A stretch of 64,000 bases of DNA from an uncultured Candidatus Saccharibacteria bacterium (GCA_964625065.1 CAZUZL010000001.1:40132-104131); one strand, 5' to 3'. Shown: positions 5,745-48,450, counted from the stretch's first letter. Program-made: numbers and translations. Notes: generated from the letters alone by a model not told the origin.

Positions 5745-5769
5745 ATACAAACTTAATCTATTTGACATA

Positions 5770-5805
5770 AAACGCATTATCTATATAATGCGTTTTATAA
5801 TTCAT
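5770..5805 (+). terminator. Intrinsic terminator after sod
   Basis: ataaaacgcattatctatataatgcgttttat stem-loop with T-run. Confidence 0.6.
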
Positions 5806-5834
5806 ATAGTTCTAAACCTTTAAAATTTAATATA

Positions 5835-6515
5835 ATGACAAAAAAAGTAACCAGATCAGTAACAAGCCCAGAGGATTTTATTAGCATCCCCTCTGAAGAA
5901 GGCGAACGACTTATTCGTCGTATGTGGCTAGCAAGTGTATCATCTGAAGAAAAACCTTATTTGTCGCCAGTTTCGACATTTATGGCAAGATTCCGCCAGC
6001 AGATATTTATACAAAAAGACAATGGCAGCCCTCTGAAAATATACTTTTTTCTTGAAAAAGAGTTACTCCACAATAAAAAACTATTTAAAGACATTCAGAC
6101 TCTTGGCATGCTACCTAGTAATGCCTACTGCCATGCCACGATTAACGCAGGGCATGTAACTCAAATTCGCGCAAAGGGAATTCTAAGTGAAATGGACAAA
6201 GAAGAAAAAGATTTCTTTACTAAAAAAATAAAGGAAAGAATGAATGGAGTCAAAAATGAAGACCAGCCGGTTCTATTATTCTCTTTTTATGGTCCACTAC
6301 TAAAATTTAATATCAATAATTGTATTGAGAACCCTAAAGCTAAGTTTTATTGTTTCGAACCAACCCAGTATGAATACTGTAAATACTGGCTATGTAGAGT
6401 GGGTCAGATTAAACGTGATAATCCAGGCAAATCAATACAAAGACTTATTGCTGAAGGACAATACAAATCAAAGAAAAATGGAAGGTTAGTTACGCAAGAA
6501 TTTCTAATTTTGTAA
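5835..6515 (+). CDS. Hypothetical protein
   Basis: 226 aa ORF with its own terminator downstream; no recognisable motif. Confidence 0.45.
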   Translation: MTKKVTRSVTSPEDFISIPSEEGERLIRRMWLASVSSEEKPYLSPVSTFMARFRQQIFIQKDNGSPLKIYFFLEKELLHNKKLFKDIQTLGMLPSNAYCHATINAGHVTQIRAKGILSEMDKEEKDFFTKKIKERMNGVKNEDQPVLLFSFYGPLLKFNINNCIENPKAKFYCFEPTQYEYCKYWLCRVGQIKRDNPGKSIQRLIAEGQYKSKKNGRLVTQEFLIL

Positions 6516-6529
6516 AAGTTAAATAATTT

Positions 6530-6560
6530 AAAAAGTCAGGTATAGCCTGACTTTTTTTTA
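6530..6560. terminator. Bidirectional intrinsic terminator
   Basis: aaaaa-GTCAGGTATAGCCTGAC-tttttttta between convergent genes. Confidence 0.65.
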
Positions 6561-8003
6561 TTTTATAATCCCTATAACCCCATTCCCAAACAACATCACC
6601 GCCATTACCCCATACATACCCAACATTGCCCACAGTGGCAATGGGTAGTTTAGTACACCAAAAGGAACAGAGGCGAATAACATAATAACCCACAACACAA
6701 ACGTTAATAATATAGAAAGTGGAAATGCAAATAAAATAGATAAACTCGGTATAAAAAAACACAACACCAATAAAAATGTTAACCCCATAACCAGTGGCAT
6801 AAGTGGCAGTATTAATACATTGGCCGGTATTGAAACCAAAGACATAGCCCCCATAGTAAATAGTATCAGTGGCAGTACAGCAATATTTGTACCCACTGTT
6901 GTGGCAACCACGTCGCGTATACCAAACTTATCTGTTACCCATAAAAACTTGTGTAGTATTTTGGGTGTTATATATATCAGCCCTATAGTAGCTAAAACTG
7001 AAAGTTGAAATGAAACGTCGTACAGTATTGTAAATGGGTTCATTATACCCATTGCAATAATTGTTAATACCAACACCCTGCCTATATATGTTTTTCTACC
7101 GACAAGTTTTGCCAATATAACAATACCACCCATTATGCCCGCACGTATGGCAGTGGTAGAAGCACCGGTTAATATTACAAATAAAACTATACCAAATATT
7201 GAAACTATCCATGCTACTGTAACAGAAAATATTGCACCCAATGTTGCCAACATGGCTTCGACAACAATGGTAATGTTGTAGCCCGACAGGGCAATAATGT
7301 GTATAGTTCCGGAACGTACAAACTGGTCGCGCAAACCTGTTGTTAACCAGTCGCGCGAACCAACTAATATGCCACGAGCTAAGCCAGACTGCGGTTCGTG
7401 CAAATTGTTGTTTATTTGGTTTTCTATTTTATTCTTTAGTACTGCTAAACGTGCAGTAACATTCCACCTACCTGCTGGTGTGGTAGACAACACTTTTGGT
7501 TTGTCTAATGTTACATATACAAAGTCTTTTTTAAGATACGAAACATAGTCAAATACAGTGTCGTTAGAACCAGTAAAGTTTTCTGGGTATTGAAGTACGC
7601 CAGAAATTTGTACATGTTCACCCACCAACAAATTCCCGCTGTTTATTTTTACTAATACTCGAAATCTTTCACCGACGGGTTGTACTAAAACAGTTTGTAT
7701 ATTATTTTTACCTTCAGCAGTTACTACCCTGCCTGATAATGTTACATTTTTATTTATTGCATCCGTGTACAGAACAGGTATTTTTGGCATGCGCATATAC
7801 GAAACACCATAGCCAAGTAAAATAGACACCACTAAAACGAACGTTAAACCAAAAACTTTTTTAGAAAACTTACCTAAAAACAAAATACAAACCAGACAAA
7901 TAAAAACACCGGCAACTAGGCCGTATGTGTTCTGTTGTGCTGTAAATAAAATAATACCAACTACTGCGCCGAAACTTGTTCCATAAAACAAATTGTCATC
8001 CAT
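6558..8003 (-). CDS. comEC: DNA internalization competence protein ComEC/Rec2 (DUF4131 + competence channel domain, no lactamase domain)
   Basis: Polytopic membrane protein with ComEC competence-domain motifs (…TAIRAGIMGGIVILAKL…). The ORF-track GTG start at 8027 (MALPISNGM) lies inside a repeat; the ATG at 8001-8003 (MDDNLFYG) is preferred. Confidence 0.8.
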   Translation of the reverse strand: MDDNLFYGTSFGAVVGIILFTAQQNTYGLVAGVFICLVCILFLGKFSKKVFGLTFVLVVSILLGYGVSYMRMPKIPVLYTDAINKNVTLSGRVVTAEGKNNIQTVLVQPVGERFRVLVKINSGNLLVGEHVQISGVLQYPENFTGSNDTVFDYVSYLKKDFVYVTLDKPKVLSTTPAGRWNVTARLAVLKNKIENQINNNLHEPQSGLARGILVGSRDWLTTGLRDQFVRSGTIHIIALSGYNITIVVEAMLATLGAIFSVTVAWIVSIFGIVLFVILTGASTTAIRAGIMGGIVILAKLVGRKTYIGRVLVLTIIAMGIMNPFTILYDVSFQLSVLATIGLIYITPKILHKFLWVTDKFGIRDVVATTVGTNIAVLPLILFTMGAMSLVSIPANVLILPLMPLVMGLTFLLVLCFFIPSLSILFAFPLSILLTFVLWVIMLFASVPFGVLNYPLPLWAMLGMYGVMAVMLFGNGVIGIIK

Positions 8004-8197: not shown

Positions 8198-8761
8198 CTA
8201 CATAGGGGGCAACCCCTTGAAGAATTCTTTATAATTTTCTTTAGTGCCACGAAACAGTGGTGTGTTGTCTTTGTCTGCAAAACTGGTTGCAATAACATCG
8301 GCACGTTCGTTTAGTAGTACACCTGAATGCCCTGCAACTTTTTTCGTGTGTAAATTTTTACCAAAACTACGCACCAATACCATTAGTGGTTGCCATAGTT
8401 CCTGGTTTAGAACTGGTTTTTTATTTGCAGTTTTCCAACCGTTTTTCTCCCACCCTGCAACCCAAGACCCGATACCGCCTAACACATATGCAGAATCAGT
8501 ATGTACAGTAACAACCACTGTTACACTACGCCCCGCCTTTTTAACTTCTTCCTGGACTGCGCGCAAACTAGCTATAACACCCATCAGTTCCATTCTATTA
8601 TTCGTTGTATGGGCGTCGTGGCCACCTATTTCATAGACATAGTCATGTTCTGCCAATATGCCTGCGTCAAAGCCTATAACAGCCCCGTAGCCCCCTGGAC
8701 CAGGGTTACCGCGCGAAGAACCGTCTGTATATATAGATATATGTTTTTCCTGACTATTCAT
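8198..8761 (-). CDS. rnhA: Ribonuclease HI
   Basis: IYTDGSSRGNPGPGGYG...NNRMELMGVI...HSGVLLNERAD are canonical RNase H1 motifs. Confidence 0.85.
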   Translation of the reverse strand: MNSQEKHISIYTDGSSRGNPGPGGYGAVIGFDAGILAEHDYVYEIGGHDAHTTNNRMELMGVIASLRAVQEEVKKAGRSVTVVVTVHTDSAYVLGGIGSWVAGWEKNGWKTANKKPVLNQELWQPLMVLVRSFGKNLHTKKVAGHSGVLLNERADVIATSFADKDNTPLFRGTKENYKEFFKGLPPM

Positions 8762-8880
8762 CCCGTTTAGAAGCAGGTCGCGGTCAATAGAGCGCTATTT
8801 GCTTGATTATATTTATAAATTAATAATATATTACTTTCATAATTTATGCCCGTTACTGCGACCGCGGCTTCTAACGGGAT
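8759..8880. mobile_element. 122-bp TIR-bounded repeat element (copy C, short variant); its terminal CAT is the rnhA start codon
   Basis: Left catcccgtttagaagc-aggtcgcggtc (8759-8785); right gaccgcggc-ttctaacgggat (8858-8880); AT-rich core ttgattatattta shared with copy A. Confidence 0.55.
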
Positions 8881-8918
8881 TCATGTAAAGATTATAGCAT
8901 GAACATATACATAAATTA

Positions 8919-8950: not shown

Positions 8951-9726
8951 GATATAAAACTTTCTCTAGTTTGGAGGAAAAAGTTAATATATTCCTGGTT
9001 GTTAGACTCGAACAATTCTTCGTGCCTACCAAAAGAAAACTGCACCCTATAGTGGTCTTCGTCGTTCAAAAATTTTCCAATTATTGAATAACTAGTAGTA
9101 GGAAACTTACTATGGAAAACTAAAACGAATAAATTTCTACACATTACATACTGAGATTTTCTATTCTTCTTCTTAATATCGTCAACAGAAATTATTAAAG
9201 CAAAGTATTCTGTGGCTTTTTCTGCAATATGTTTAAGTAACATTTCTGCAAATGCAGCTGGTTCGATATTAAGACTAGAAAACAAAGATTCTTTTTTAAA
9301 TACTACTTTTTCAGCATTATTCCATTCGTCGACATAAGACATGGTAAATTCCAAAAGGTTTTTGTCTTCACCTAAATGTGCATTAATTTTTTTAAACAGT
9401 GCGCTTTTTTCATAAAAATCTTCACTGTAATTCTCTTCTGTTTCAAAAAATTCTACTAACATTTTTCGGTTAATATTTTTTCTAAAAACATTAAAAAGAA
9501 AGAAAACAATTGCGGCTCGCAATGTTTTAAATTCTGCGGACACACCCCTATTTCCTAAAAGGCATTCGTGTTTTATTTCTTTTGTAAAATGCCAGGTTAT
9601 GCTGGGGTTAGATCTGATCGATTTTAAAATCGTTTCTACAACTATTAGTAAACTAACCATGGATAGGTTTGTATTTTGTATTTCCTTATTCGTGTACATT
9701 TTGTTTATTTTTAATAAACAATACAT
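8923..9726 (-). CDS. Hypothetical protein
   Basis: 267 aa ORF with no recognisable motif; the real start may be the internal MYTNKEIQ. Confidence 0.4.
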   Translation of the reverse strand: MYCLLKINKMYTNKEIQNTNLSMVSLLIVVETILKSIRSNPSITWHFTKEIKHECLLGNRGVSAEFKTLRAAIVFFLFNVFRKNINRKMLVEFFETEENYSEDFYEKSALFKKINAHLGEDKNLLEFTMSYVDEWNNAEKVVFKKESLFSSLNIEPAAFAEMLLKHIAEKATEYFALIISVDDIKKKNRKSQYVMCRNLFVLVFHSKFPTTSYSIIGKFLNDEDHYRVQFSFGRHEELFESNNQEYINFFLQTRESFISKITQLQPA

Positions 9727-9729
9727 AAA

Positions 9730-11466
9730 TTATATAGTAATGTCAACTATACGTAAGCGCATTTCTACCTTGCCCATATAACGCGATTCTTCTATATATG
9801 CAGACATATCTATATACATACCTGGTACCAGTTTTTGTTCAAAATCATTCGTAGTTTTGAAAAATGCTATGGCCTTTATCTTTGTTGTTTTTCCGTCATT
9901 GTTATGTGAAACAACTATTTCTAAGTGGTTTTTGTCTTTACCAAATTCCTTTGCTGTTTCTATTAATACACGTTTAAATACGAATAAAGGTTTTTCATTT
10001 GCCACACCAAATGGTGCAAAGTTTTGTATTGCACGATAGACTTCGTTTGTAACTATAGGTAATGTAACTTCTAGTGTTTGTGCACTATCTTTGTCAACAT
10101 TAACTTCAATTACAGCACTACTGTGCACACTGTTTAACACATCTGCCAGTGTATGTATTGCGTCATTACTAACTGAAAAACCTCCAGCACCCTCATGCCC
10201 ACCAAAGGCAACAAATGTGCCTGCCGGTGCAGCCGACATTATAGAAACAAGGTGGCACGTACCGTTAGAACGACATGAACCTTTTATAATTCCAAATTCG
10301 TCGCGTCCCCAAACAAAAACAGTTTTGTCATGTTCGTCTACAATTTTCGATGCAACCAAACCCAGCACACCAATGTTCCAGTTTGGGTTACCTATTACAA
10401 TAACAGGCTGTTCTTCTTTTTGTTTTAAAACTTTTTTTACCTCCTTCATGATAGATGCAACTTTTGTTTTTCTTTCTGTGTTTAAACCTTCTAAGTGTGT
10501 TGAAAATTCTACCGCTTCCTTAGCGTTTTTTGTTTTAAGTAATTTAAATGCAGTCATGGGCGTGTCCATGCGTGACGCAGCATTTAGTCGTGGTGCCAAT
10601 GTAAAAGTTACATCATCTTCAACTATGTGTGCCATGTCTACACCGGCTTTTTGTAATAGTAGTTGCAAGCCAGGTCGGCGAGTTTTCTTTAAAACCTGCA
10701 AACCATAGTACGCCAGTGTTCTGTTTTCCTTCAGTAGTGGTACCATGTCTGACAATGTTGCAATGGCCACCATGTCTAGCAACCATTTTTCCCACCCCAC
10801 GGGTACATTATATTCTGCACGGTATTTATCTAGGAAACCACGAACAAAAGTAAATATTACACCAGAACCACACAACATGTCGTCTGGGTAATTGTTACCA
10901 GTTTGTTTTGGGTTTATAACAGCATATGCATCTGGAATAATTTGTGTGTCTTTATTCTTCTTATCTTTAAGTATTTTCTCTAATGGCAAATGGTGGTCGG
11001 TAATGATTAAATCAATACCCTTTTCTTTACAGTACTTAGCTTGGTCGACAGCGGTAATACCAACATCAATTGTTATAATCAATGTCACCCCCTGACTAAC
11101 CAAACTATCTACAGCAGGTATATGTAAACCGTAACCTTCTTTGTGTCTGTCAGGAATATAAACAACATAATTTGTAAAACCAATAATGTCGAACATATCA
11201 GACAGTACAACTGCACCCGGTATACCGTCGCAGTCGTAGTCTGCATATATGGCAATTTTCTCGCCTTTTGCTATAGCGTTATAAACCCGTTCTACAGATT
11301 TATCCATGTCCTTCATATCTGTTGGGTTGCCTATATTTGTATATTGTGGGTGCAAAAAATCGTCAGCATCAATAGCCGACAAACCCCGCATAGTTAACAA
11401 ATGTTCCACCACTTCGTTCATGCACATTAGTCTACCATGGGGCATAAGTAATACAAAAATAGACAA
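9730..11466 (-). CDS. recJ: Single-stranded-DNA-specific exonuclease RecJ
   Basis: DHH/DHHA1 phosphoesterase motifs (DYDCDGI, ITDHH) in a ~570 aa protein; start possibly at MNEVVEH (11421). Confidence 0.8.
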   Translation of the reverse strand: MSIFVLLMPHGRLMCMNEVVEHLLTMRGLSAIDADDFLHPQYTNIGNPTDMKDMDKSVERVYNAIAKGEKIAIYADYDCDGIPGAVVLSDMFDIIGFTNYVVYIPDRHKEGYGLHIPAVDSLVSQGVTLIITIDVGITAVDQAKYCKEKGIDLIITDHHLPLEKILKDKKNKDTQIIPDAYAVINPKQTGNNYPDDMLCGSGVIFTFVRGFLDKYRAEYNVPVGWEKWLLDMVAIATLSDMVPLLKENRTLAYYGLQVLKKTRRPGLQLLLQKAGVDMAHIVEDDVTFTLAPRLNAASRMDTPMTAFKLLKTKNAKEAVEFSTHLEGLNTERKTKVASIMKEVKKVLKQKEEQPVIVIGNPNWNIGVLGLVASKIVDEHDKTVFVWGRDEFGIIKGSCRSNGTCHLVSIMSAAPAGTFVAFGGHEGAGGFSVSNDAIHTLADVLNSVHSSAVIEVNVDKDSAQTLEVTLPIVTNEVYRAIQNFAPFGVANEKPLFVFKRVLIETAKEFGKDKNHLEIVVSHNNDGKTTKIKAIAFFKTTNDFEQKLVPGMYIDMSAYIEESRYMGKVEMRLRIVDITI

Positions 11467-11542
11467 ATCTGTTGTAAGTGTTATACTAATAAAAAAACAA
11501 ATACTAGTGAGTATTTGTCAAAACAACTAAAATTAAATAAAC

Positions 11543-12133
11543 ATGGATATTATAGATTTTTTCAAAAAGCCTACATTAAAAGAATACAAGGAGGCTTTAC
11601 AAAACATTGCAAAAGTTGATAGTACTTTCACAACATCAGTTGAAGGTTTTACCCACACATCTGCCATCTATGAAGTTATTTTTGAATATTCAAAAATTGT
11701 AAGAATATACACAAATAGCATGGACGACGAGGTTACAGACAGAGATTCGTTCTGTAATTCATTGAATACATTTTTGGAAAACAAAAATAAATTACAAATA
11801 ATTGTTGATAATAACCCGTTTCGTTATGCAAAAACATCTAGAACTATAGATTTAATGACCAGATTTTATTCTAAAAATGAAAATTTAGATATTAGAATTT
11901 CAGATTCTAAATTCAAAAAATCTATTGCGGGGGTTACAAAAAATAACGAAACCTACTATTTTGTTGTTGGTGATGATTCAAAAGTAGCAATAGAAAATAA
12001 TTATACCAAACATGTGGTGCCATTATTTAGCTTCAATAATAAAGAATATGCAAATGCATATAAAAATGTTTTTGATTCACATTTTCTAAAATTACAGAGG
12101 GTATTTATACCACGTAGTCAGAACAAGTATTAA
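11543..12133 (+). CDS. Hypothetical protein
   Basis: 196 aa ORF, very AT-rich, followed by a terminator. Confidence 0.4.
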   Translation: MDIIDFFKKPTLKEYKEALQNIAKVDSTFTTSVEGFTHTSAIYEVIFEYSKIVRIYTNSMDDEVTDRDSFCNSLNTFLENKNKLQIIVDNNPFRYAKTSRTIDLMTRFYSKNENLDIRISDSKFKKSIAGVTKNNETYYFVVGDDSKVAIENNYTKHVVPLFSFNNKEYANAYKNVFDSHFLKLQRVFIPRSQNKY

Positions 12134-12150
12134 AGTACTAAAATAATTAA

Positions 12151-12186
12151 CAAAACCGATTCATATATATATGAATCGGTTTTTAA
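12151..12186 (+). terminator. Intrinsic terminator
   Basis: aaaccgattcatatatatatgaatcggttttt. Confidence 0.6.
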
Positions 12187-12321
12187 ATACAATAAAAATC
12201 TTATAACCTGCCTAGGCATATTTCGAAAAATATGTAGGAAGGCCTTGTTACACAAAGAATAGCAAATAAATCTAAAATACACAAGAAAATAAAATTATAA
12301 GCATAAATTAGATGATAAAAC

Positions 12322-13032
12322 TTAAAATGTATTAGAACTTAGTACATTTATAATTTCAATGGCCAGAGGTTCTCTTTCGTATTTCAAACTTTTTTGAAGT
12401 TTATCCATTATATCCCTAGAAGGAATTGCTAATTTTGATATTTCAGAAATAAATACAAACTGCTCTTCGGTTATTTCCGGTGGCAGACGTTTTATTAATT
12501 TAAGAATCTTTACGTCTTCTAAGTTATTTGCAGATAATTTTAAAAAATCAAGCTGATCTTTAATTAAAACCAAATTATCTATTAGAGTATCGATGGTATC
12601 TGTAGTTTTCTGTTTTATAGGACCTGCTGGAAAATTACCTAATATCTTAAAATATTCAGGAACAACTTTTTTAAATGAAGTATATTTGTAGTTTTTATTT
12701 CCTTCAATTAGAATTTGTTTTTCAACATTTTCTATAACTTCTTTCATTATAATAATTATTGTATTATTATAATTTAAAAGACGAAATAAATACTTTTTTC
12801 TTAAGCTTTTAAAGTAACGAGGAATTTTCGGAAGAATATAAACCTGGACAACTAAATAGATTGATAAGATCAAAATTAAAGTTATTATTGATTTTTGGTA
12901 ATAATTCACCAAAAACACTATTAGGCCTACTATGAATACAATAAGTGGGTAAAGAATGAATAATGGATAAAACGTAGAATTAGTACCCTCATTAATGGCC
13001 TTTTGAGATAGGTAAGATTTAGATTGTGTCAT
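12322..13032 (-). CDS. Hypothetical membrane protein
   Basis: 236 aa with two N-terminal TM helices; extremely AT-rich coding sequence. Confidence 0.4.
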   Translation of the reverse strand: MTQSKSYLSQKAINEGTNSTFYPLFILYPLIVFIVGLIVFLVNYYQKSIITLILILSIYLVVQVYILPKIPRYFKSLRKKYLFRLLNYNNTIIIIMKEVIENVEKQILIEGNKNYKYTSFKKVVPEYFKILGNFPAGPIKQKTTDTIDTLIDNLVLIKDQLDFLKLSANNLEDVKILKLIKRLPPEITEEQFVFISEISKLAIPSRDIMDKLQKSLKYEREPLAIEIINVLSSNTF

Positions 13033-13255
13033 ATTATGGATTTTTAAAGAGTGAAAATTAGATTATTTGAATATATAATAACATTAAATATCAATTTAAG
13101 CAAGTTTTTACATTACTACAAAATCTTGCATGTTTTATATGAACATGCTAAATTGTTAGTAATAAATTATATTTGCTTATCTGTAAATATAAAACTGAAT
13201 TGGTTATTAATATAGTTTTTGTTCGTTGGAATAAAATAGTAAATGATTCCTATTT

Positions 13256-13447
13256 TAGAAATAATAGGATCAGGGTAAACTAGAGTTAATAACTCTGGGG
13301 TTGTAGGATGCTTTGATTTGTGTCAAGTATTCCTAAGTAGCACATTCAGGCCAAATTTGTGAATCGACGGGTGAAATCACCAAGTCCCGTAACCCTAAAC
13401 CTTTGAACTTAAACTTTAAAACTTCGCTACGATTTGGCGGAGTTTTT
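13256..13447 (+). ncRNA. Candidate small structured RNA of unknown family
   Basis: An island of higher GC inside very AT-rich DNA; several local hairpins (agagtta/taactct, ggtg/cacc, acggg/cccgt); ends in a cuucgc/gcggag stem plus UUUUUUUAUUU; no ORF. Confidence 0.3.
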
Positions 13448-13527
13448 TTATTTAATTTTTATTCTGATAAAAAATCTAATACTAGTCTCAGTTAACATTA
13501 TTTACTTTGTAAATTATCAATACTGAA

Positions 13528-14217
13528 TTACCTTTTATAATCCACAAATTTCCCAGACCAAGTATATGCTGAAAGTATTCCTATGAATGAACCAGCAATA
13601 AACCAAAATATAAGTTCTTCAACTGGTATACCCATAGTTAAAATTCCTGATAGATATCTAAAATCATAAGTGGCTGAAACCCAGCCAGGAGTAGTTATAA
13701 TAGTTGTCCAATACAATGGAAGAATACATATAGTGGTCAAAATACCTGACCATAGACTTGGAATAATGAGGTCTTTTCTTATAATCCACATAAAAACCGT
13801 TGCCAATGTTGTAACTAATGTAAATGATTGAAATGATGTAAATCCTATATATTTAATAAGTACATGAATAACTGTCAGAACTACTACCGAAAAAAGGATT
13901 CGAAAAAGTGAATATATACTTTTTTGACTACTAATAATCTTTTTCTTGAAAAAGACTTGATAAATAACCATCATAACTCCACCAGCACCAAAACCAGTAA
14001 AAAAGTCTTCTACTCCTATTCTTGTTCCTGTTATGGTTTCTGGGTGCCACCAGTCCACTGTCCACCAAATGTAACCAGTGACTAGTGATAAAATTCCATA
14101 TAATGTAGCTGTATAAATCATAAATTTTCGTAAATCTTTTCGTAGAATATAAAAGATTGTCCAGAAAATCATCCCAACGATTACTAATATAAGGTATCCA
14201 AAATGAATAGGTAACAT
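13528..14217 (-). CDS. Membrane protein with a lycopene-cyclase-like domain
   Basis: 229 aa polytopic protein with two PxEE-like repeats (IGVEDFFTGF; GIPVEELIFWFIAG). Confidence 0.45.
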   Translation of the reverse strand: MLPIHFGYLILVIVGMIFWTIFYILRKDLRKFMIYTATLYGILSLVTGYIWWTVDWWHPETITGTRIGVEDFFTGFGAGGVMMVIYQVFFKKKIISSQKSIYSLFRILFSVVVLTVIHVLIKYIGFTSFQSFTLVTTLATVFMWIIRKDLIIPSLWSGILTTICILPLYWTTIITTPGWVSATYDFRYLSGILTMGIPVEELIFWFIAGSFIGILSAYTWSGKFVDYKR

Positions 14218-14252
14218 AATATGATTATAACTTATAGATATATTTTTAGCAC

Positions 14253-14729
14253 TTAAATATGTGATCTTAACTGCCTTACATCTTCTAAATCAACTTCACG
14301 AGCAAGTTTTGTTTTATACGCAATCAAAGATTTGATGTTTTCTACAGGTATTTTTCTACCATATACTTCCTTTATCGTTATGTTATCTAAACTACTATCA
14401 AGATATTCCCATCCTTTTGTTTGTGTATTAAAAATTTTTGCACCCGTTCCTGCAATATCTATGTCCTGACCTTCATAATTTAATGTCATTAAAAGTAAGT
14501 CCCAGTTTTCATCTTTGTATTGATTAGGTCCATACACAATATATGGTCGTATTTCATCAGACTGTGCTATTTGACCAATATCAACATCAGACACTTCTAT
14601 GTCAATGTCCGCAAGTTCTCTATTAACACCATACACCCTAGTAGCAAAGCCACCTGAAACTTTATATTTAATATTATTTTGCTCAAGAATATCTATTATC
14701 CAATTGAAAGCCACTTTAGTATTTTTCAT
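14253..14729 (-). CDS. Lnu(A)/ANT(2'')-family nucleotidyltransferase-like protein
   Basis: SGGFATRVYGVNRELADIDIEV nucleotidyltransferase motif; length 158 aa and C-terminal region are collinear with lincosamide nucleotidyltransferases. Confidence 0.55.
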   Translation of the reverse strand: MKNTKVAFNWIIDILEQNNIKYKVSGGFATRVYGVNRELADIDIEVSDVDIGQIAQSDEIRPYIVYGPNQYKDENWDLLLMTLNYEGQDIDIAGTGAKIFNTQTKGWEYLDSSLDNITIKEVYGRKIPVENIKSLIAYKTKLAREVDLEDVRQLRSHI

Positions 14730-14762
14730 AATATTTTAATACTACCACATTAAAATAAATAA

Positions 14763-14797
14763 AAATATTCTGGTGTTTAAGCCAGAATATTGCTTTT
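14763..14797. terminator. Intrinsic terminator
   Basis: aatattctgg-tgtttaagc-cagaatatt-gctttttt. Confidence 0.5.
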
Positions 14798-14809
14798 TTA
14801 AAAAATTGC

Positions 14810-15016
14810 TTAAAATTTTCTTTTCAACATCTCAATAGTGTGTTTTTTCCTCTGAGAAATAACGGCTTTATGAATTCCAAGTTTTATTAGCTCATCTTTT
14901 ATACCTGGTAGTTGAGAAAACTTTTCATGAGTAACAATTGGACCTGCGACAAAAACAAGCACTCCATCTTTCCGAGTTGGTGTTAGTTTTACGGTTTTGA
15001 ATGTTCTAGGCTTCAT
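14810..15016 (-). CDS. Small hypothetical protein, possibly a gene fragment
   Basis: 68 aa ORF, no motif. Confidence 0.25.
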   Translation of the reverse strand: MKPRTFKTVKLTPTRKDGVLVFVAGPIVTHEKFSQLPGIKDELIKLGIHKAVISQRKKHTIEMLKRKF

Positions 15017-15186
15017 AATCTAAAATTTTAATTTTTAAAATATATAAATTTATCTACTAATATAATACCATTTTATTTAATTTTAAACAAGATGTGCGTA
15101 TAGGTTCAATAGCTTGGCACCATTTGATAAAATGTTATCAAATAAATGTGATGCACAGCAACAAAAAAATTAAGTTGCAATTTATC

Positions 15187-15744
15187 TTAATTTAACTCTA
15201 TTTCCCCAAAATCCTTTATATATTCCGAATGGTTAGTTAGTTCTACATTACGTAGTATTGCCAAAGCAGATTCACGCATAGCAATACCCTCACTAGATTC
15301 GACACATTCTTCTAAAACATATGTAAAAAAACCGGCGTCAAAACTGTCAAAAGCAGTGGCCATAACACAGTCGTTTGCATCTACACCAACAATATGGACT
15401 TCTTGTATATTATTTTCTTTAAATAAAGTAATTAAATCTTTGTCGCCCTGAAATGCAGACTTAGTTGTTTTTGTAACTAGAATTGTATTTTTATTTTCTA
15501 ACTCTGACTTAATTTCAGGTATTGTTGGTTCGATTTTAAAAGTCCAGTTAGTTTGGATGTCCCACAACGAACCAGTATCTGCGTGGAATACAGCTTCTAC
15601 ATATAAATTATAGTTTCCTTTTTGTATCACCGATTGAACATTTTTTATAATGTAACGAGTTCTTTCGGGTAAAAACCCTGTTTGCATATCAACAATTATT
15701 AATGCTCGAATTTTGTTTGGGTTAGGAATTAGTATGGAATTCAT
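15187..15744 (-). CDS. Isochorismatase-family cysteine hydrolase (nicotinamidase-like)
   Basis: ALIIVDMQ and VHIVGVDANDCVMATAFDSFDAGF motifs. Confidence 0.75.
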   Translation of the reverse strand: MNSILIPNPNKIRALIIVDMQTGFLPERTRYIIKNVQSVIQKGNYNLYVEAVFHADTGSLWDIQTNWTFKIEPTIPEIKSELENKNTILVTKTTKSAFQGDKDLITLFKENNIQEVHIVGVDANDCVMATAFDSFDAGFFTYVLEECVESSEGIAMRESALAILRNVELTNHSEYIKDFGEIELN

Positions 15745-15756
15745 ATTTATATTATA

Positions 15757-16521
15757 TCATTTGCTGTGTGTTTTTATATCTATTGCTAAATGGTCAGACA
15801 CCCTATTGGGCAAAACTGTGCATAAAATATCGTTTGTTTTTAATGTACTAATATCAAAATACACATGGTCGGTACGGAACTTAAAACTAATACCAAAACG
15901 TGCAAAAAAACTATTTACCCTGTTAAGTAAAAAAGAAGATTTTTCTGTATATCGACTATCCAAAGTTGGGCCAATATTTTTACTAACACGAATAAAATCT
16001 GGTAAAAGTATTTTTTCTATTTCAGAAACTTCACCCGGAAAACCAGTATTAAAATCCCCCGCAAATACAATGGGTATATTGTTTTTATAATTAGAAAGAC
16101 TTTCTTTAATTATTTCTATTTCCTTTTTTCGTATACTTGTTTTTATGCCGGAATGTAGATGTACAGAACCTACCAATACACCCTGCCCCTGCACGGCAAA
16201 AATACCGCCAACAAAACCCCAACCACGCATTGGCATATTCGGGTCGAAATTTGCAAATGATATAAACAACGTATCTTTTAAAACAAATGCTTTTTTATAT
16301 AAAATACATACACCTGTATTAGTGCTGAGATTTACATCAAATGGACGCACCACAATATACGAATGTTCAAATTGTGTAATAATAGAAACAACTTTTGCAT
16401 CAACTTCCTGTAGTAGAACAAAATCGTATTTATCGCTTACCAACACATCATGTATAAAATCTCCGAAACTTGACTGATACGCCTTTTGTGTATTTAGTGT
16501 TAATATATTTAAGTTTTTCAT
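15757..16521 (-). CDS. Endonuclease/exonuclease/phosphatase (EEP) family protein
   Basis: LQEV, GDFN and SDHLA motifs in a 254 aa protein. Confidence 0.65.
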   Translation of the reverse strand: MKNLNILTLNTQKAYQSSFGDFIHDVLVSDKYDFVLLQEVDAKVVSIITQFEHSYIVVRPFDVNLSTNTGVCILYKKAFVLKDTLFISFANFDPNMPMRGWGFVGGIFAVQGQGVLVGSVHLHSGIKTSIRKKEIEIIKESLSNYKNNIPIVFAGDFNTGFPGEVSEIEKILLPDFIRVSKNIGPTLDSRYTEKSSFLLNRVNSFFARFGISFKFRTDHVYFDISTLKTNDILCTVLPNRVSDHLAIDIKTHSK

Positions 16522-16592
16522 AATTATTTTCTAAAACTATTTCAACAATCTTTTACTGAAGATCAAGTTTTTTAAGTTATGTTTCGTGTGTT

Positions 16593-17603
16593 TTATAATA
16601 CTATATTAGGATCAAGAATATTAATTAGTTTTTCTCTATTTTCTGTTAGATAATAAATTTCCTCTAAATTTGTTTTATATGTAATATCATTCCTAAAGTC
16701 TTCTTTTACATAATGCAGATATTCACGCCATATAGAATAGAAAGATTTTGTGTAGTACAACTCTATTGCACTTCTAAATTCAGTAGATGTAAATGAATAA
16801 ATATCAAAATATGACTTTATAAAAATCTTTGCTTTTTCTATATTTTCTAAATTATATCCATGCCAAAAACATGTAAGCGAACAGGAACGAACTAATTCAT
16901 ACATTCTAGGTGTTGGGCCTGCCATGTCTAAGTCAAAAATATTAAGAATTTTTCCGTCTTCGGTAAAAAATACATTGTCAGGATAATAGTCACCAAAACA
17001 AAGGTGTCTGTCATTCATGTTTAAAGATTCAAAAGTAGTTGTACATTCTGATACAAGTTTTTTCTTTAAATTCAATCCGTCTATACTCAAAACATCAAAG
17101 TCATTTTCTGGTTTAATAATTTTTAGTAATTCTTCAATTTCAAAAATTATGTGTTCTTTTTCCTGTAATTTAAAATGCGTATCTTCATCATATTTACCGA
17201 TAATTCCATTTTTTGTTAACAAATGAGCCTTAGCTAATTCACGCCCCATAACTTTAATAATATCTATAGGTATATTTCCAGTTTCATACTGTTTTCCACT
17301 AATAAATGGGTAAAGCACGTAACATGAGTGGTTTATTACTTCATGCAAATTACCATTCTTACTTCTTATTGGGCCGATAACAGGAATTTTATTTTGAATA
17401 AAAAAATCTTCAACTTTTTCTATAGTTTCAATTCTATCTGCACCGCTTATTCTGTGTTTTTTCAAAAAGAAAACACCATTACCAGTTTCTACCTTGTAAT
17501 TATAACTAGAAAAACCCTTTTCAACCTTAGTAAAAACAACGGGTTCAACGAGCCAAAACATTTCTATAATTTTTTCTGATATATTTTGATTCATATTATG
17601 CAA
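16593..17603 (-). CDS. Aminoglycoside/macrolide phosphotransferase (APH/choline-kinase) family protein
   Basis: Brenner-like HLCFGDYYPDNVFF and IFDLDMAG motifs; 336 aa. Confidence 0.65.
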   Translation of the reverse strand: MHNMNQNISEKIIEMFWLVEPVVFTKVEKGFSSYNYKVETGNGVFFLKKHRISGADRIETIEKVEDFFIQNKIPVIGPIRSKNGNLHEVINHSCYVLYPFISGKQYETGNIPIDIIKVMGRELAKAHLLTKNGIIGKYDEDTHFKLQEKEHIIFEIEELLKIIKPENDFDVLSIDGLNLKKKLVSECTTTFESLNMNDRHLCFGDYYPDNVFFTEDGKILNIFDLDMAGPTPRMYELVRSCSLTCFWHGYNLENIEKAKIFIKSYFDIYSFTSTEFRSAIELYYTKSFYSIWREYLHYVKEDFRNDITYKTNLEEIYYLTENREKLINILDPNIVL

Positions 17604-18822
17604 CTATAGCATTTTTCAGATACTTTTTCTCCACGAATAATATACTAAACATTGCCAACGTTATTACTGTTAGAACACTGAACGTTGTTGACGTACCACT
17701 GATATCCAGCATGACACCAATTATAATCGGGGCAACTATTTCACCCAAACACCAACTTACTGAAAGCAGCCCAGACACGCGACCCAAATGTTCTTTGGTA
17801 ACTATTGTCGTCGTAATACCATCGAAAGCAAAGCTGACTAAATTAAGAGCAAGAGACAAACCGAATGCCAATACTACACTTGCAATCACACCTTTAATAA
17901 AGATTAAGCACACCAGACAGAAAACAAGTGCCGACATACCGCACATAACGGCTTTACTACGGTTCCGATCAGCAAGAGCACCAACATAGGCACTACACAC
18001 TGACGGCAAAGCGGTTGCAGCACCTATAAGGATAACCCACGTTATACTTGCCCCGTTCGTATATGCATCAAGCGGTATAACAAAACCGGCAACAACACTA
18101 ACAAAGCCCATAAAAAATGTGGCCAGACTGATCAATCTTACACCCGGGCTCCAACTTTTTATTTCATTCCATAAACTATAAAAAACGCCATCATTAAAAA
18201 CATTTTTTATACCTGCTTTCGCACCAACATAACCAGGATCGCGATTTAGTGTTAGGAACATGAAAAGACAAATAATAGACGTTGGCAATATCACAAGAAA
18301 GAGCGAATGAATGGCAAAATAATTTACCAAGAAAATACTCGCTACGACACACACTATCCAAAAAATACTGGTAACAGCGTCGAAATAGCCAAATATGCGC
18401 CCAATAGATTCAGATGCTGAATGTCGGCGTATATAGGTACTGCGACCAACACTATCGAATGCATAACCCACCCCGTTTAGTAGTCGGGCAATAACGACAA
18501 ATATAACTGCCCCCGTAGCACCTGCCCAGAAATATGCAAAACCGATAAATGGATAAAAGAGAACACCTATAATCAATACCGTTCGGGCAGAAATTTTATC
18601 TATCAACAGCCCCACAAACGGCACTGCTAGAATAAAGGCGATGTCATACACCGAACGCAATAACCCAGTTTCTGCATATGAGTTAGCAAAAGAAAGAAGA
18701 AATATCGGTATCAATGCCTCGACTACGCCCCAGCCCATCCAACGAATAGTGGTGCCCCAGATAACAGTATTTACATCACTGGGAATTGATCGTTTTTGTA
18801 AAAATGGTTTAAAAAAAGACAT
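17596..18822 (-). CDS. MFS transporter
   Basis: About 12 TM helices and MFS signature loops; overlaps the downstream kinase by 8 nt, which suggests an operon. Confidence 0.8.
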   Translation of the reverse strand: MSFFKPFLQKRSIPSDVNTVIWGTTIRWMGWGVVEALIPIFLLSFANSYAETGLLRSVYDIAFILAVPFVGLLIDKISARTVLIIGVLFYPFIGFAYFWAGATGAVIFVVIARLLNGVGYAFDSVGRSTYIRRHSASESIGRIFGYFDAVTSIFWIVCVVASIFLVNYFAIHSLFLVILPTSIICLFMFLTLNRDPGYVGAKAGIKNVFNDGVFYSLWNEIKSWSPGVRLISLATFFMGFVSVVAGFVIPLDAYTNGASITWVILIGAATALPSVCSAYVGALADRNRSKAVMCGMSALVFCLVCLIFIKGVIASVVLAFGLSLALNLVSFAFDGITTTIVTKEHLGRVSGLLSVSWCLGEIVAPIIIGVMLDISGTSTTFSVLTVITLAMFSILFVEKKYLKNAIVA

Positions 18823-18863
18823 AGTATCGTACTTGTGAAATATTTAATAATAACATTTTTTAC

Positions 18864-19766: not shown

Positions 19767-19773
19767 TTGTAGA

Positions 19774-20244
19774 TTATATCACTTTTTTAATGTTTACATA
19801 ATGACCTAAAAACCACTTTAATTTATCTTGTAAATACTTGGTATTTTTAATGGTTAATTGTTGGCCCTCATATTTTATTATAACAACTGTACCTTCTAAC
19901 CTTTTATTAAAATCAAGCGAATCGGAAATGCTATCTTTTTCTATTTTAAGTATTATTAATTCTTTGTATTTATCTGATATAAAATTACCATCAGAATCTA
20001 CCCAACTAGATCTAGATTTCAATAGTGATTTTTTTCTAATTGGTGATGTAATAAAAGCACCTAAGACACCTAACAAACGAGTAAGTATATGCACATATAC
20101 AGGCATACTAATTCCAATAATATAAAGACAATCTTTAGTAACTATAATGTCTGCCATTGAAAAATTATTGTTTTTTATTGAATCTGAAAAATTAACAACA
20201 AATGTCCAATTTGGAATATATAAAAATGGTCTATATTTTTCCAT
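19774..20244 (-). CDS. Hypothetical protein
   Basis: 156 aa ORF, no motif. Confidence 0.4.
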   Translation of the reverse strand: MEKYRPFLYIPNWTFVVNFSDSIKNNNFSMADIIVTKDCLYIIGISMPVYVHILTRLLGVLGAFITSPIRKKSLLKSRSSWVDSDGNFISDKYKELIILKIEKDSISDSLDFNKRLEGTVVIIKYEGQQLTIKNTKYLQDKLKWFLGHYVNIKKVI

Positions 20245-20247
20245 AAT

Positions 20248-20445
20248 TTAATATGAATATATTTTAATTACTTGAAGTATAAAGAAAACAATAAGACCTA
20301 TGGTAAAAATTGTATTTATTTTTCTATATTTATTAGATTTTTTTATTATCTGCTCGTTTCGCAACAAGGCTTGTTTTTGATTTTCAACAGTTTCTTTTTG
20401 TAAATCACGAATTTCTTCTAATATTTTTATAGTTTTATCTTCCAT
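20248..20445 (-). CDS. Small membrane protein
   Basis: 65 aa with a coiled N-terminus and one C-terminal TM helix. Confidence 0.3.
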   Translation of the reverse strand: MEDKTIKILEEIRDLQKETVENQKQALLRNEQIIKKSNKYRKINTIFTIGLIVFFILQVIKIYSY

Positions 20446-20465
20446 ATAATTTAGTTTAGTTAATT

Positions 20466-47001: not shown

Positions 47002-47409
47002 CTATAATATCAAATCTTCGTACATTACTACCCTACCGGTTTTGTTTTCCATATCTAGGTACGCACATGCCAAGTCTATATATACCTTTGTTTTATAAGA
47101 CACTTTTCGTTCTAGCAGGTATGTTTCTATGGTGCGTAGCATTTTCCGTGCCTTCATAGGGTGCATGTTTTGGGCTGGGTCGTAACGCATGTATTTAACT
47201 TGAGCCAAATCCCCCACTTTTATGGACTTAACTTCTATAAAATGTATATTGTCGGGTCCATTTGTTACACGAGTAACAATGTCTATCTCGCCCCACTTTT
47301 TAGTGTAGTTGCGTTCTAGTATTTCATGGCCGTGTTTCATGAGGAACGTACAAACTACGTCCTCTCCTATTTCTCCAGTCTTTTGTTTATCTGAAGTAAA
47401 AACCTTCAT
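47002..47409 (-). CDS. YraN-family (UPF0102) predicted endonuclease
   Basis: GEDVVCTFLMKHGHEILERNYTKKWGEIDIVTR...IHFIEVKS; start at MKVFTSD; the ORF-track extension MALPISNGM is repeat-derived. Confidence 0.7.
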   Translation of the reverse strand: MKVFTSDKQKTGEIGEDVVCTFLMKHGHEILERNYTKKWGEIDIVTRVTNGPDNIHFIEVKSIKVGDLAQVKYMRYDPAQNMHPMKARKMLRTIETYLLERKVSYKTKVYIDLACAYLDMENKTGRVVMYEDLIL

Positions 47410-47597
47410 CCCGTTAGAGATAGGAAGTGCCACTACATAACATAGAAAACATTTACTATTCTCGATTTTAATTATAATCTATTCGACTAATTACATATCT
47501 AGCACTTCCGTAGATTAATTCAGTATATATACATATTAACATATTACGAGTGCATGAAACATATAAGCAATTAAGCATCTATAATCTCTAACGGGAT
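47407..47597. mobile_element. 191-bp TIR-bounded repeat element (copy B); its terminal CAT is the yraN-like start codon
   Basis: The 27 nt catcccgttagagataggaagtgccac are identical to copy A; inner partner agcacttccgta (47501-47513); tacatattaacata core; right arm atctctaacgggat (47584-47597). Confidence 0.6.
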
Positions 47598-47989
47598 TCA
47601 CTACTTAACTTCAAAATGTTTCATGAATAACACAAATGTCCGTTTCAGTACCAAAATGATCGAATTCCACTAAAGTGTGCCACGTGAAACATCTTTATGG
47701 CTATATCTAACTAATATAATATGTATTCTAATGTGTATTTTATAAATACCCTTATTTTTATAGGTATTTTAGATTTTTGGGGTATAGTATGACATTTTTT
47801 TGACATGTCTGTATACTGTCTTTTATAAACAATATACACAGACTTATCCACACTTATACACAGTTTTCTATATAAAATATAGGTTTTAATGAATATAAAA
47901 GACGATTCTTACAAGAATTGTGTCGCGCAATGTCCTTTGAAGCGCGACCCGTCAAAAAAGTCTTTAATAAAAAGGGCAGAAAAAAGAGA

Positions 47990-48420
47990 GGGGGGCAAAA
48001 GGGGAATCGGTTGCGATTTTATAACAACAGGGAATCGCCACCTACCGTGGCGAGTGCTTTGAACAAAAAGGGGAATCGGCCACGGTTTGCTGGTATTAGA
48101 AATGCGGAATGGGGATCGGCTTCGCCTCTCACCTCGTCAGTCACTCGGTTCGGGCTAGCCACCGCCTCGCACCCACACTGCTGTGTGGGACCCGCTCCGG
48201 CGTCCGATTCAGAATAACAGGGAATCGCCACCTACCGTGGCGGGTGCTTTTAGTAACAATAGGGAATCGGCCACGATTTGCTGACATTTTTCATCACAAG
48301 TTCGAAAAATACCTAGCAATCCCGGCCCGGACTCGGCGACAAGCATTCCTTGTTACACAGGAATCTTGTATACCGCCTCCGTCTTCCGATTCCCCTATTA
48401 CGCATAAAATAAAATCGCCC
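47990..48420. repeat. GC-rich non-coding block of direct repeats derived from the 3' end of tRNA-Gly(GCC)
   Basis: A composite ~70-bp unit occurs twice (48027-48094 and 48217-48288); core gggaatcgg occurs at least 7 times in gene orientation and once inverted (48395-48413); hairpins cgccac-ctacc-gtggcg and cccacac-tgctg-tgtggg. Confidence 0.55.
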
Positions 48421-48450
48421 GAAGGTATACTTCGGGGTCATTTATTTTTG

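Follow-up and report, generated by a model that had tools for sequence, protein, structure and literature searches.

The element studied here, which we call copy C, sits at the start codon of rnhA in a 64,000-nucleotide stretch of DNA (hereafter the window) from an uncultured Candidatus Saccharibacteria bacterium (GCA_964625065.1 CAZUZL010000001.1:40132-104131). The gene lies on the minus strand and encodes RNase HI, with PF00075 present in all close homologues; an exact-protein look-up of the window RnhA returned no record. A preliminary description of positions 8759-8880 had reported a shorter variant of a repeated inverted-repeat element that supplies the ATG of its gene, and the sequence details and coordinates it gave are all present: the region reads catcccgtttagaagcaggtcgcggtc...gaccgcggcttctaacgggat, with a left arm catcccgtttagaagc at 8759-8774, a right arm gcttctaacgggat at 8867-8880 and an inner pair made of ggtcgcggtc (8776-8785) and gaccgcggc (8860-8868). 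The terminal CAT (8759-8761) is indeed the reverse complement of the ATG with which the rnhA open reading frame (ORF) begins (MNSQEKH), the repeated element recurs three times in the window (copies A, B and C) and as a family in metagenomes, and two elements do flank rnhA, copy C at its start and copy A at its other end. A point absent from that description is that copy C is, very probably, a mobile insertion with a target duplication and with empty sites in relatives, i.e. a MITE (for miniature inverted-repeat transposable element), a non-autonomous DNA transposon.

The element proper reads TCCCGTT...AACGGGA, and its final base is the A of the rnhA ATG. Its left arm carries one surplus T, and the adjoining CA (8759-8760) and T (8880) are part of a 4-bp target duplication, ttca, found at 8757-8760 and again at 8880-8883. 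The region folds with z = -4.4 as RNA and -4.6 as DNA, and none of 200 shuffles folded equally well. A pattern made of the end motif and an internal block matches exactly three sites in the window, which are copies A, B and C, and 0 in 100 shuffles; a profile search found no further copy in the 64 kb. One could suppose that copy C belongs to no family and is a palindrome that arose by chance or by local duplication, for which only the AT-rich, repeat-prone context speaks, but with both sets of shuffles against it, and with more than 120 independent loci that share the same ends, we attach no probability to such an origin.

Immediately upstream of copy C stands gctataatctttacATGAA, an ordinary leaderless promoter with an ATG of its own, and the TATAAT within it is the original leaderless promoter of rnhA, now parted from its gene by copy C. 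The relic ATGAA that follows opens a 15-codon ORF, MNPVRSRGRSNGHKL and then a stop.

Filled and empty sites

The evidence for mobility comes from relatives in which the element is missing. In one of them, represented by the Logan contig L001, RnhA is 98% identical and the DNA ~90% identical, and the orthologous rnhA site reads gctataatctttacATGAATagtcagg (TATAAT-N7-ATGAATAGT), with a single ATGAAT where the window reads ATGAA[T...A]TGAAT. An empty site in a relative this close indicates that copy C has been inserted and is no fixed leader with a regulatory role. In BLAST comparisons of L001 with the window, the alignments are interrupted precisely where the element begins and ends, and neighboring alignments share the duplicated bases; from this the state of the window can be written as ...A TGAA [T CCCGTT...AACGGG A] TGAA T.... 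The same relative is also without copy A, and there rnhA and comEC abut (tagttATG). A second and independent filled/empty pair is found at Parcubacteria mnmA, where L048 and L176 are filled after tataatcaagggacATGAA and the site is empty in L177 and L178 (...caagggcATGAAAAAG).

Other genomes carry the element where the window does. Copies A, B and C occupy the same sites in the Kiruna_bin-09228 ‘Nomurabacteria’ genome, in which the distal end of copy A, one base short in the window, is intact, and copy B, which is found in two Logan samples as well, occupies the same site in L020, L024 and L025. An 8-kb locus (L019) of a ‘Saccharibacteria’ metagenome-assembled genome (MAG) holds two more members, one with C-type ends and ATGAAT on either side at a dus-like gene, the other with A/B-type ends. 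A scan of genome contigs, a collection that does not include the source genome, with the distal end and the promoter block matched 20 loci, of which those in the Kiruna genome and in one ‘Saccharibacteria’ MAG are real and the others chance, as was to be expected.

To reach the wider family, JGI metagenomes were scanned with TCCCGTTAGAR-N(85-145)-YTCTAACGGGA, a pattern that holds neither an ATG nor any flanking sequence. At least 120 metagenome stretches matched end to end, and when the copies of the window and of related loci are added, the matches listed come to 139 elements with lengths of 79-190 nt (mode 120); the family counts used throughout (n = 139, 116, 37 and 30) describe the matches listed rather than a full census. 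In 75 of 116 copies the A and the following 4 nt agree exactly between the two sides, and the duplicated sequence differs from copy to copy, with TGAA, TGGA and TGAG joined by the rare TGCG, TGTA and TGGG. After the element the four nucleotides are TGAA in 65%, TGGA in 14% and TGAG in 9% of copies. Copies away from an ATG are flanked by TTTA, TAAA, TCAA, CATA or CATG, and these duplications without TG indicate that the duplicated length is 4 bp. One locus, L133:6131-6367, holds two near-identical 117-nt copies in tandem, the second inside the TGA(A) that the first had left behind (ATGA|el|TGA|el|TGAA, where el is the element), an arrangement that suggests repeated insertion at the same target.

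Terminal inverted repeats, a target duplication, a small size without a transposase gene and a presence/absence polymorphism, four of the features by which MITEs are recognized, are found at copy C. The element was inserted into the rnhA start codon between the A and TGAA, with duplication of the TGAA, presumably by means of a cut-and-paste transposase that makes 4-bp staggered cuts. The terminal A of the element and the duplicated TG rebuild an intact ATG, so that the ORF is untouched, and the old leaderless promoter and the old ATG are left ~120 bp upstream (Table 1).

Table 1. Positions of copy C and its parts, of rnhA, and of copies A and B, counted from the first base of the window
Feature	Position	Strand	Remarks
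Copy C, 119 bp, type I	8761..8879	-	Distal to proximal: TCCCGTTAGAAGC...GCTTCTAAACGGGA; nhmmer E = 5.6e-17; stretch missing at the orthologous L001 site
Gene-proximal target duplication, TGAA	8757..8760	-	Gives the rnhA ATG its TG and codon 2 its first two bases
Distal duplication, TGAA (8880-8883), with the original start-codon A (8884)	8880..8884	-	Relic ATGAA
Native -10 box, TATAAT	8891..8896	-	7 nt upstream of the relic ATG; the same TATAAT-N7-ATG adjoins the gene in L001
P1 outer stem, distal arm	8867..8879	-	TCCCGTTAGAAGC
P1 outer stem, proximal arm	8761..8774	-	GCTTCTAAACGGGA, one extra A; holds the conserved TAA and ends in the A of ATG
P2 inner stem, 5' strand	8858..8866	-	CGCGGTCGC
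P2 inner stem, 3' strand and bulge	8775..8785	-	GACCGCGACCT; two possible pairing registers
Internal block TTAATTTATAAATATAATCAA	8803..8823	-	TATAAT ~44 nt upstream of the rnhA ATG; candidate outward promoter
rnhA, RNase HI, 187 aa	8198..8761	-	Gene whose start codon took the insertion
Copy A, 189 bp, type II with expanded hairpin loop	8003..8191	-	comEC-like start codon, on the side of rnhA away from copy C
Copy B, 188 bp, type II	47409..47596	-	UPF0102/YraN-like start codon; TGAA duplication at 47405-47408 and 47597-47600

Some further differences between the window and its relatives lie away from the elements. Between recJ and an EamA-like gene the window carries a 7.4-kb block (11440-18845) with ~8 ORFs that is missing from L001 and L002, it also has an additional 0.7-kb gene (19767-20464), and a 226-aa ORF at 5835-6515 (region 5746-6611) stands in place of the LysE-family gene of the relative. 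Beyond copy B, positions 47900-48450 form ~550 nt of GC-rich (43-65%) non-coding sequence beside tRNA-Gly(gcc) in a genome of 37% GC. This region has no Rfam match, folds with z of about -3.6 to -3.8 on either strand and holds two internal repeats of ~100 nt (..CAGGGAAUCGCCACCUACCGUGGCG.GUGCUUU..GGGGAAUCGGCCACG..); it is possibly an undescribed structured RNA.

A family with conserved paired ends

The family, whose conserved ends are TCCCGTTAGA...TCTAACGGGA, occurs mainly in genomes of the Patescibacteria (candidate phyla radiation). Genes that carry an element at their start include those for uL23, IF-2, AspRS, MnmA, HPF, a LexA-like protein, RluD and PGK, some of them essential. Pfam profiles begin at the first residues of such proteins (that of MnmA is matched from position 1), which indicates that the rebuilt ATG is the true start. 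The public call of one mnmA (L048:3086-3206, protein P0121) is 356 aa long against 359 aa from the rebuilt ATG, i.e. three residues shorter, a warning for annotation in that, at least here, a gene caller chose a different start for an element-bearing gene. The elements themselves hold no ORF beyond short peptides.

The range of the family depends on the pattern used to look for it. An initial JGI metagenome scan with the promoter-block pattern gave 0 matches, so the block is lineage-specific and not family-wide. On viral contigs the full-length pattern again had 0 matches, and a 15-mer scan returned mostly chance matches in GC-rich phage genes (e.g. L147) along with a few genuine mini-variants of 43-64 nt on IMG/VR contigs (L151:10174-10216, L157:4733-4777 and 9058-9117, L162:376-418, L174:2708-2759 and L175:3739-3799). 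These have the same ends and ATGAA/TGAA flanks, carry a GGAGG Shine-Dalgarno sequence directly before the proximal arm, and belong to genomes of 42-50% GC that use ribosome-binding sites; when one gene downstream of a mini-variant was compared with known phages by tblastn, nothing matched. At L032:550, L112:8928, L074:1593 and in L176 upstream of 1501 there are copies whose ends have diverged (AATGGGA, CCCCGTTAGAT..., TCCTGTTAGAAG...), and on their account the family must be larger than the exact-end pattern shows. In many copies the interior also has a small additional hairpin, (A)CCC-UAAC-GGG(U), or the motif TCCCGTTAG a second time (L028, L045, L049, L068, L089, L103 and L131, in distal arms, and L026:274-289), and such internal repeats of the end motif may serve as additional binding sites for an end-recognizing protein.

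Two subfamilies can be told apart by their pairing. In the 37 type-I copies, to which copy C corresponds, the outer stem P1 is 13 bp long and 99% paired; its positions 1-10 are fixed by the search pattern, and positions 11-13 vary yet match (AU/GC 33/4, GC/AU 27/9 and CG/UA 24/11). The inner stem P2 joins the two arms and covaries in two alternative registers (GC/AU 21/14 and UA/AU 27/8). Taken together, P1 positions 11-13 and P2 give 49-50 double-change cells against ~15 in shuffles, a value reached in 0 of 500; slid controls fall to ~40% paired, and RNAalifold independently predicts the same stems. In type II the 3' strand of P2 is in the same place and finds its partner locally, in a hairpin acGG-N5-7-loop-N5-7-CCt directly before the proximal arm, where 217 of 220 pairs are Watson-Crick across more than 15 different stem sequences (30 copies). 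In copies A and B, both of type II, the hairpin loop is enlarged by an insertion of ~65 nt. The interiors of the two subfamilies are unlike, and only the paired ends are conserved.

These results alter part of the earlier picture. Copy C had been taken for a shorter variant of copies A and B, but its identity is 79% with type-I copies from other organisms and 51% with A and B, and it belongs to the common subfamily of ~120 nt. It had also been proposed that the inner stem keeps its architecture and position among the copies; this holds for the gene-proximal strand, which lies directly before CC-T-[13-nt arm]-ATG in every copy, and fails for its 5' partner, which in A and B lies ~75 nt inside the element near the gene-proximal half and in C is in the distal arm. 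Finally, selection on structure rather than on sequence had been suggested, with the absence of covariation among further copies named beforehand as the outcome that would speak against it. Covariation was found, and the complementarity of the stems bears the suggestion out for both types; the opposition to sequence does not carry over to the outer 10 bp, which look conserved in sequence as well.

Covariation between the arms alone cannot separate folding as RNA from folding as DNA. The mismatches that are tolerated, read in the mRNA sense, are A:C more often than G:U (13 against 4 in P1, 11 against 5 in P1 and P2 together, small numbers in both cases), the opposite of what sense-RNA structure predicts. 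RNA structure is thus not favored over DNA structure, and selection specific to the sense RNA was set aside as unsupported by this count.

This bears on a rival explanation in which copy C would be a fixed cis-regulatory RNA, a hairpin in the 5' untranslated region that masks the start codon or serves as a substrate of RNase III, with rnhA, comEC and yraN as its regulon and no mobility at all. The stable hairpin (z = -4.4), the real covariation, the fixed sense orientation and a start codon lying within the last pair of the stem would all suit such a regulator. However, at three sites in two lineages the element is present in one close relative and absent from another, with a duplication of exactly 4 bp, which refutes the claim that it does not move; in addition, the affected genes are functionally unrelated, the interiors differ between subfamilies and A:C is tolerated over G:U on the sense strand. 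Nor is there an Rfam family for it, as Rfam 15 at the gathering score gave only tRNAs in the window and 20 element-bearing loci, and nothing meaningful at E up to 10. We consider a purely regulatory element highly improbable, although an RNA role may exist in addition to mobility.

Start codons, orientation and expression of the gene

Among the matches listed, the terminal A is the first base of an ATG opening an ORF of at least 50 aa in 119 of 139 elements, and the other 20 are mostly cut by the end of the locus, first of a tandem pair, or 2-4 nt away from an ATG. Since the search pattern contained neither an ATG nor flanks, this association is not built in. Preference for ATGAA would not suffice to produce it. 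The window contains 182 ATGAA, 15 at gene starts, 25 intergenic and the remainder within genes, and with insertions into genes purged, such a preference alone would leave ~37% of survivors at starts, against an observed share of at least 86%. The orientation is likewise uneven: a CC-T motif directly before the 13-nt arm is found beside the proximal arm in 57 of 116 copies (76 under a relaxed definition) and beside the distal arm in 2 (3 relaxed), so the orientation relative to the gene is essentially fixed. We attribute the start-codon bias and the fixed orientation to selection or to targeting of some kind.

A strict orientation is also what a second rival explanation would lead one to expect, in which a hairpin-dependent element moves as single-stranded DNA or through a site-specific recombinase. 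Candidates of this kind would be an IS200/IS605-type PATE, a REP/RAYT-like element or an attC-like site, and the circle junction AACGGGA-TGAA-TCCCGTT would act as a lox-like core with an asymmetric spacer setting the orientation; the joined ends would, from their sequence, give just such inverted arms around an asymmetric 4-nt spacer. The hairpins under selection, among them a local subterminal one, and the preference for A:C over G:U, compatible with folding of bottom-strand DNA, fit as well. Yet the flanking repeat is variable and usually identical on both sides even when rare (TGCG, TGTA, TGGG), as expected of a staggered cut and not of a recombinase overlap that needs identity between donor and target. 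IS200/IS605 elements have no terminal inverted repeats or duplications, and we rejected PATE and REP/RAYT, which have subterminal hairpins and insert 3' of a fixed tetra- or pentanucleotide, because this family has, beside its subterminal hairpin, terminal inverted repeats and a variable duplication. An integron attC site was likewise rejected, as attC, which occurs in cassettes with an integrase nearby, runs RYYYAAC then GTTRRRY and the box order here is the reverse (GTTAGA...TCTAAC), the target flanks have no conserved arms and the context is that of housekeeping gene starts. Movement by either route is in our judgment unlikely.

How, then, would a gene interrupted at its first codon remain expressed? 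Nearly all genes of the window have TATAAT or TGnTATAAT 6-9 nt before the ATG and no Shine-Dalgarno sequence (e.g. at 2846, 3487, 9726, 14217, 15744, 19766 and 53483), the three element-bearing genes being the exceptions, and the genome appears to run largely on leaderless mRNAs. Ordinary genes on element-bearing metagenome contigs show a -10-like peak 6 nt before the ATG and a weak Shine-Dalgarno signal, and the distal flanks of elements have the same -10 peak at 6-8 nt. From the peak in the distal flanks it follows that the old promoter should still fire, with an RNA that starts at the relic AUG and contains the whole hairpin.

The reading frame opened by the relic ATG (MNPVR...) crosses the whole element in 38 of 116 copies, and where it ends depends on the length of the element. 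If this is a multiple of three, the end of the relic ORF falls on the conserved UAA in UCUAACGGGAUG, 4 nt ahead of the AUG (26 copies, 5.9 expected); if it leaves a remainder of one, the ORF stops at a UGA overlapping the start as AUGA (11 copies, 3.4 expected). Expectations come from shuffled interiors, and the two classes together amount to 37 against 9.3. The in-frame class is rarest and nearly always closed (open in 1 of 27, with 2.5 expected), and on these grounds we rejected an in-frame N-terminal extension, such as the ‘MALPISNGM’ extension of the ORF in copies A and B. The read-through short ORFs suggest translation from the old start, termination and restart. The IMG/VR mini-variants follow the same frame rule, which together with their GGAGG is evidence that the gene-proximal half has been shaped by the need to keep the gene translated.

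On the MITE reading, only copies that keep the downstream gene expressed would survive, and this may account for the fixed orientation and for the gene-proximal features, namely the TAA that precedes the ATG by 4 nt, the CC-U bulge and the hairpin belonging to it, and, in variants whose hosts rely on one, a Shine-Dalgarno sequence. On about one copy in three, ribosomes would begin at the old ATG, cross the element, terminate at UAA-CGGG-AUG or AUGA and initiate again at the rebuilt ATG. As a mechanism for the family, restart after a short ORF is possible, if still somewhat doubtful. Copies A, B and C belong to an AT-rich class in which the short ORF ends early, in copy C with its fifteenth codon. 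They have in common a block, TTAATnTrTAaATATAatcAA, that includes a TATAAT, lies 49-50 nt from the distal end and recurs in copy D2 of L019, and this block would be the likeliest source of a new leadered transcript in the class. For copy C we put forward, tentatively, an internal promoter from which the rnhA leader would be ~37 nt long and without the 5' arm. A sigma-70 scan around copy C gave nothing convincing on the gene strand.

The same observations touch on a third rival explanation, in which the insertion would be neutralized after transcription, either because the hairpin is excised, or severed at its base, so that a leaderless 5'-AUG mRNA is regenerated, or because a ribosome loaded at the old AUG slides or hops past the hairpin to the identical AUGAA as its landing site, as in T4 gene 60. 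Identical AUGRA sequences around a stable stem, leaderless mRNAs in the hosts, essential genes that tolerate the insertion and the retention of RNase III in Patescibacteria (PMC12641178) count in its favor. However, the excess of short ORFs that stop beside the AUG fits translation and restart better than hopping, the G:U signal of a sense-strand RNA structure is absent, and the interiors are variable and offer no conserved catalytic core or ribozyme or intron match in Rfam. We find neutralization very unlikely. A self-cleaving ribozyme or an intron had also been considered and was discarded, with interiors wholly different between subfamilies and only the paired ends conserved.

Several observations weigh against our interpretation of copy C as a MITE whose family is kept in expression by its gene-proximal half. 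A symmetric cut-and-paste transposase would by itself explain neither the fixed orientation nor the start-codon bias, and neither the window nor 0.9 Mb of flanking sequence yielded a transposase or an autonomous partner with these ends; pairs of the ends spaced 0.4-3.5 kb, with the further requirement of an ORF and of a duplication that matches, turned out to be neighboring MITEs only. The duplication is imperfect in 41 of the 116 copies, and the sequence conservation of the outer 10 bp is partly by construction, as these were fixed in the pattern. Regarding expression, copies A, B and C are without a read-through short ORF, the evidence for the internal-promoter step in copy C is a block seen in four copies only, and -10-like hexamers within the elements show no strand bias (19 antisense, 23 sense). 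A family-wide outward promoter was accordingly rejected, the boxes being equal on both strands and having no positional peak.

In these hosts, with their many leaderless genes, the first codon is also the transcription start. A broader hypothesis, which we offer as speculative and somewhat less likely to hold than the restart mechanism, is that of a transposon family spanning the Patescibacteria that homes to the first codon in a specific orientation, each copy with a ‘do no harm’ module. Its parts may be the ATG-restoring terminal A and either a short ORF with UAA or UGA placed for restart or, in hosts using one, a Shine-Dalgarno sequence. If true, the family would offer a natural setting in which to study how uncultured bacteria initiate without a leader and restart, and should the start-codon bias reflect targeting (e.g. 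of the open promoter complex, initiating ribosomes or RNA polymerase), a new principle of target selection for DNA transposons would follow. Tolerated insertions within start codons of essential genes, such as those of uL23, IF-2 and aminoacyl-tRNA synthetases, are in any case unusual, and imply either very precise targeting or a built-in preservation of expression. The family is abundant in candidate-phyla-radiation bacteria, which have tiny gene-dense genomes thought to be poor in mobile elements and expression signals that are almost unstudied. Its elements are a marker of recent genome change between close strains and amount to dozens of natural experiments on an AUG that lacks a Shine-Dalgarno sequence and stands behind 120 nt of hairpin.

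Comparison with known elements

MITEs are in general defined as elements of ~100-190 bp with terminal inverted repeats, a target duplication, no transposase gene, many copies and a long stem-loop (PMC3184786). The Correia elements (CREE) of Neisseria, which are bacterial MITEs, share their size, terminal inverted repeats, duplication, lack of a transposase, copy number and stem-loop with the present family. Correia elements adjoin genes, to which they can contribute promoters, and once transcribed they are cleaved by RNase III; they have a TA duplication and 26-bp repeats, occur in either orientation and have no known tie to start codons. The family described here differs from them in its 13-bp conserved repeat, its 4-bp, mostly TGAA, duplication inside the start codon, its single orientation and its last base that rebuilds the ATG.

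Other repeats come close to gene starts by different routes. Neisseria REP2 repeats and the IR sequences of Borrelia plasmids provide a whole expression cassette including the ATG, whereas here only the A of the ATG comes from the element, mostly without a ribosome-binding site; neither has been described with terminal inverted repeats, 4-bp duplications or an empty-site polymorphism at start codons. Rickettsia palindromic elements (RPE), like other repeats fused in frame to genes, are mobile palindromes that coding regions tolerate within them or at their margins (PMC3184786). RPE are, however, translated within the host protein, while in this family the in-frame class is the rarest, with a single open case among 27, and the protein N-terminus is unchanged. 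The SAS/ESAS of cluster K mycobacteriophages and the mycobacterial MIRUs are short motifs or repeats placed exactly at gene starts or junctions, some with inverted repeats and some with short ORFs whose stop and start overlap neighboring genes, in hosts with many leaderless genes. Their sequences differ from those reported here and an architecture of terminal inverted repeats and duplication is not known from them; there is no evidence of a link to this family. T4 gene 60 and the mitochondrial ‘byps’ are mobile insertions in coding regions with matching take-off and landing codons around a hairpin. Bypass elements of this type sit inside ORFs and are skipped by elongating ribosomes, whereas this family sits at the start codon and its statistics point to termination and restart.

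As to a possible parent, IS1380/piggyBac elements may be candidates, since they make 4-5-bp duplications and have ends starting CC(C), and the piggyBac end, CCCTAGAAAGATA, resembles CCCGTTAGAGATA. Differences are that no such transposase was found near any copy, that the ends here are T-CCC...GGG-A and that the target is TGAA and not TTAA. The features of the element were not found described together in the open-access literature searched. What sets the family apart is apparently a new combination: a 4-bp duplication in the start codon, an ATG rebuilt by the terminal base, a locked orientation, a short ORF compatible with restart, and a wide spread across the Patescibacteria that includes essential genes.

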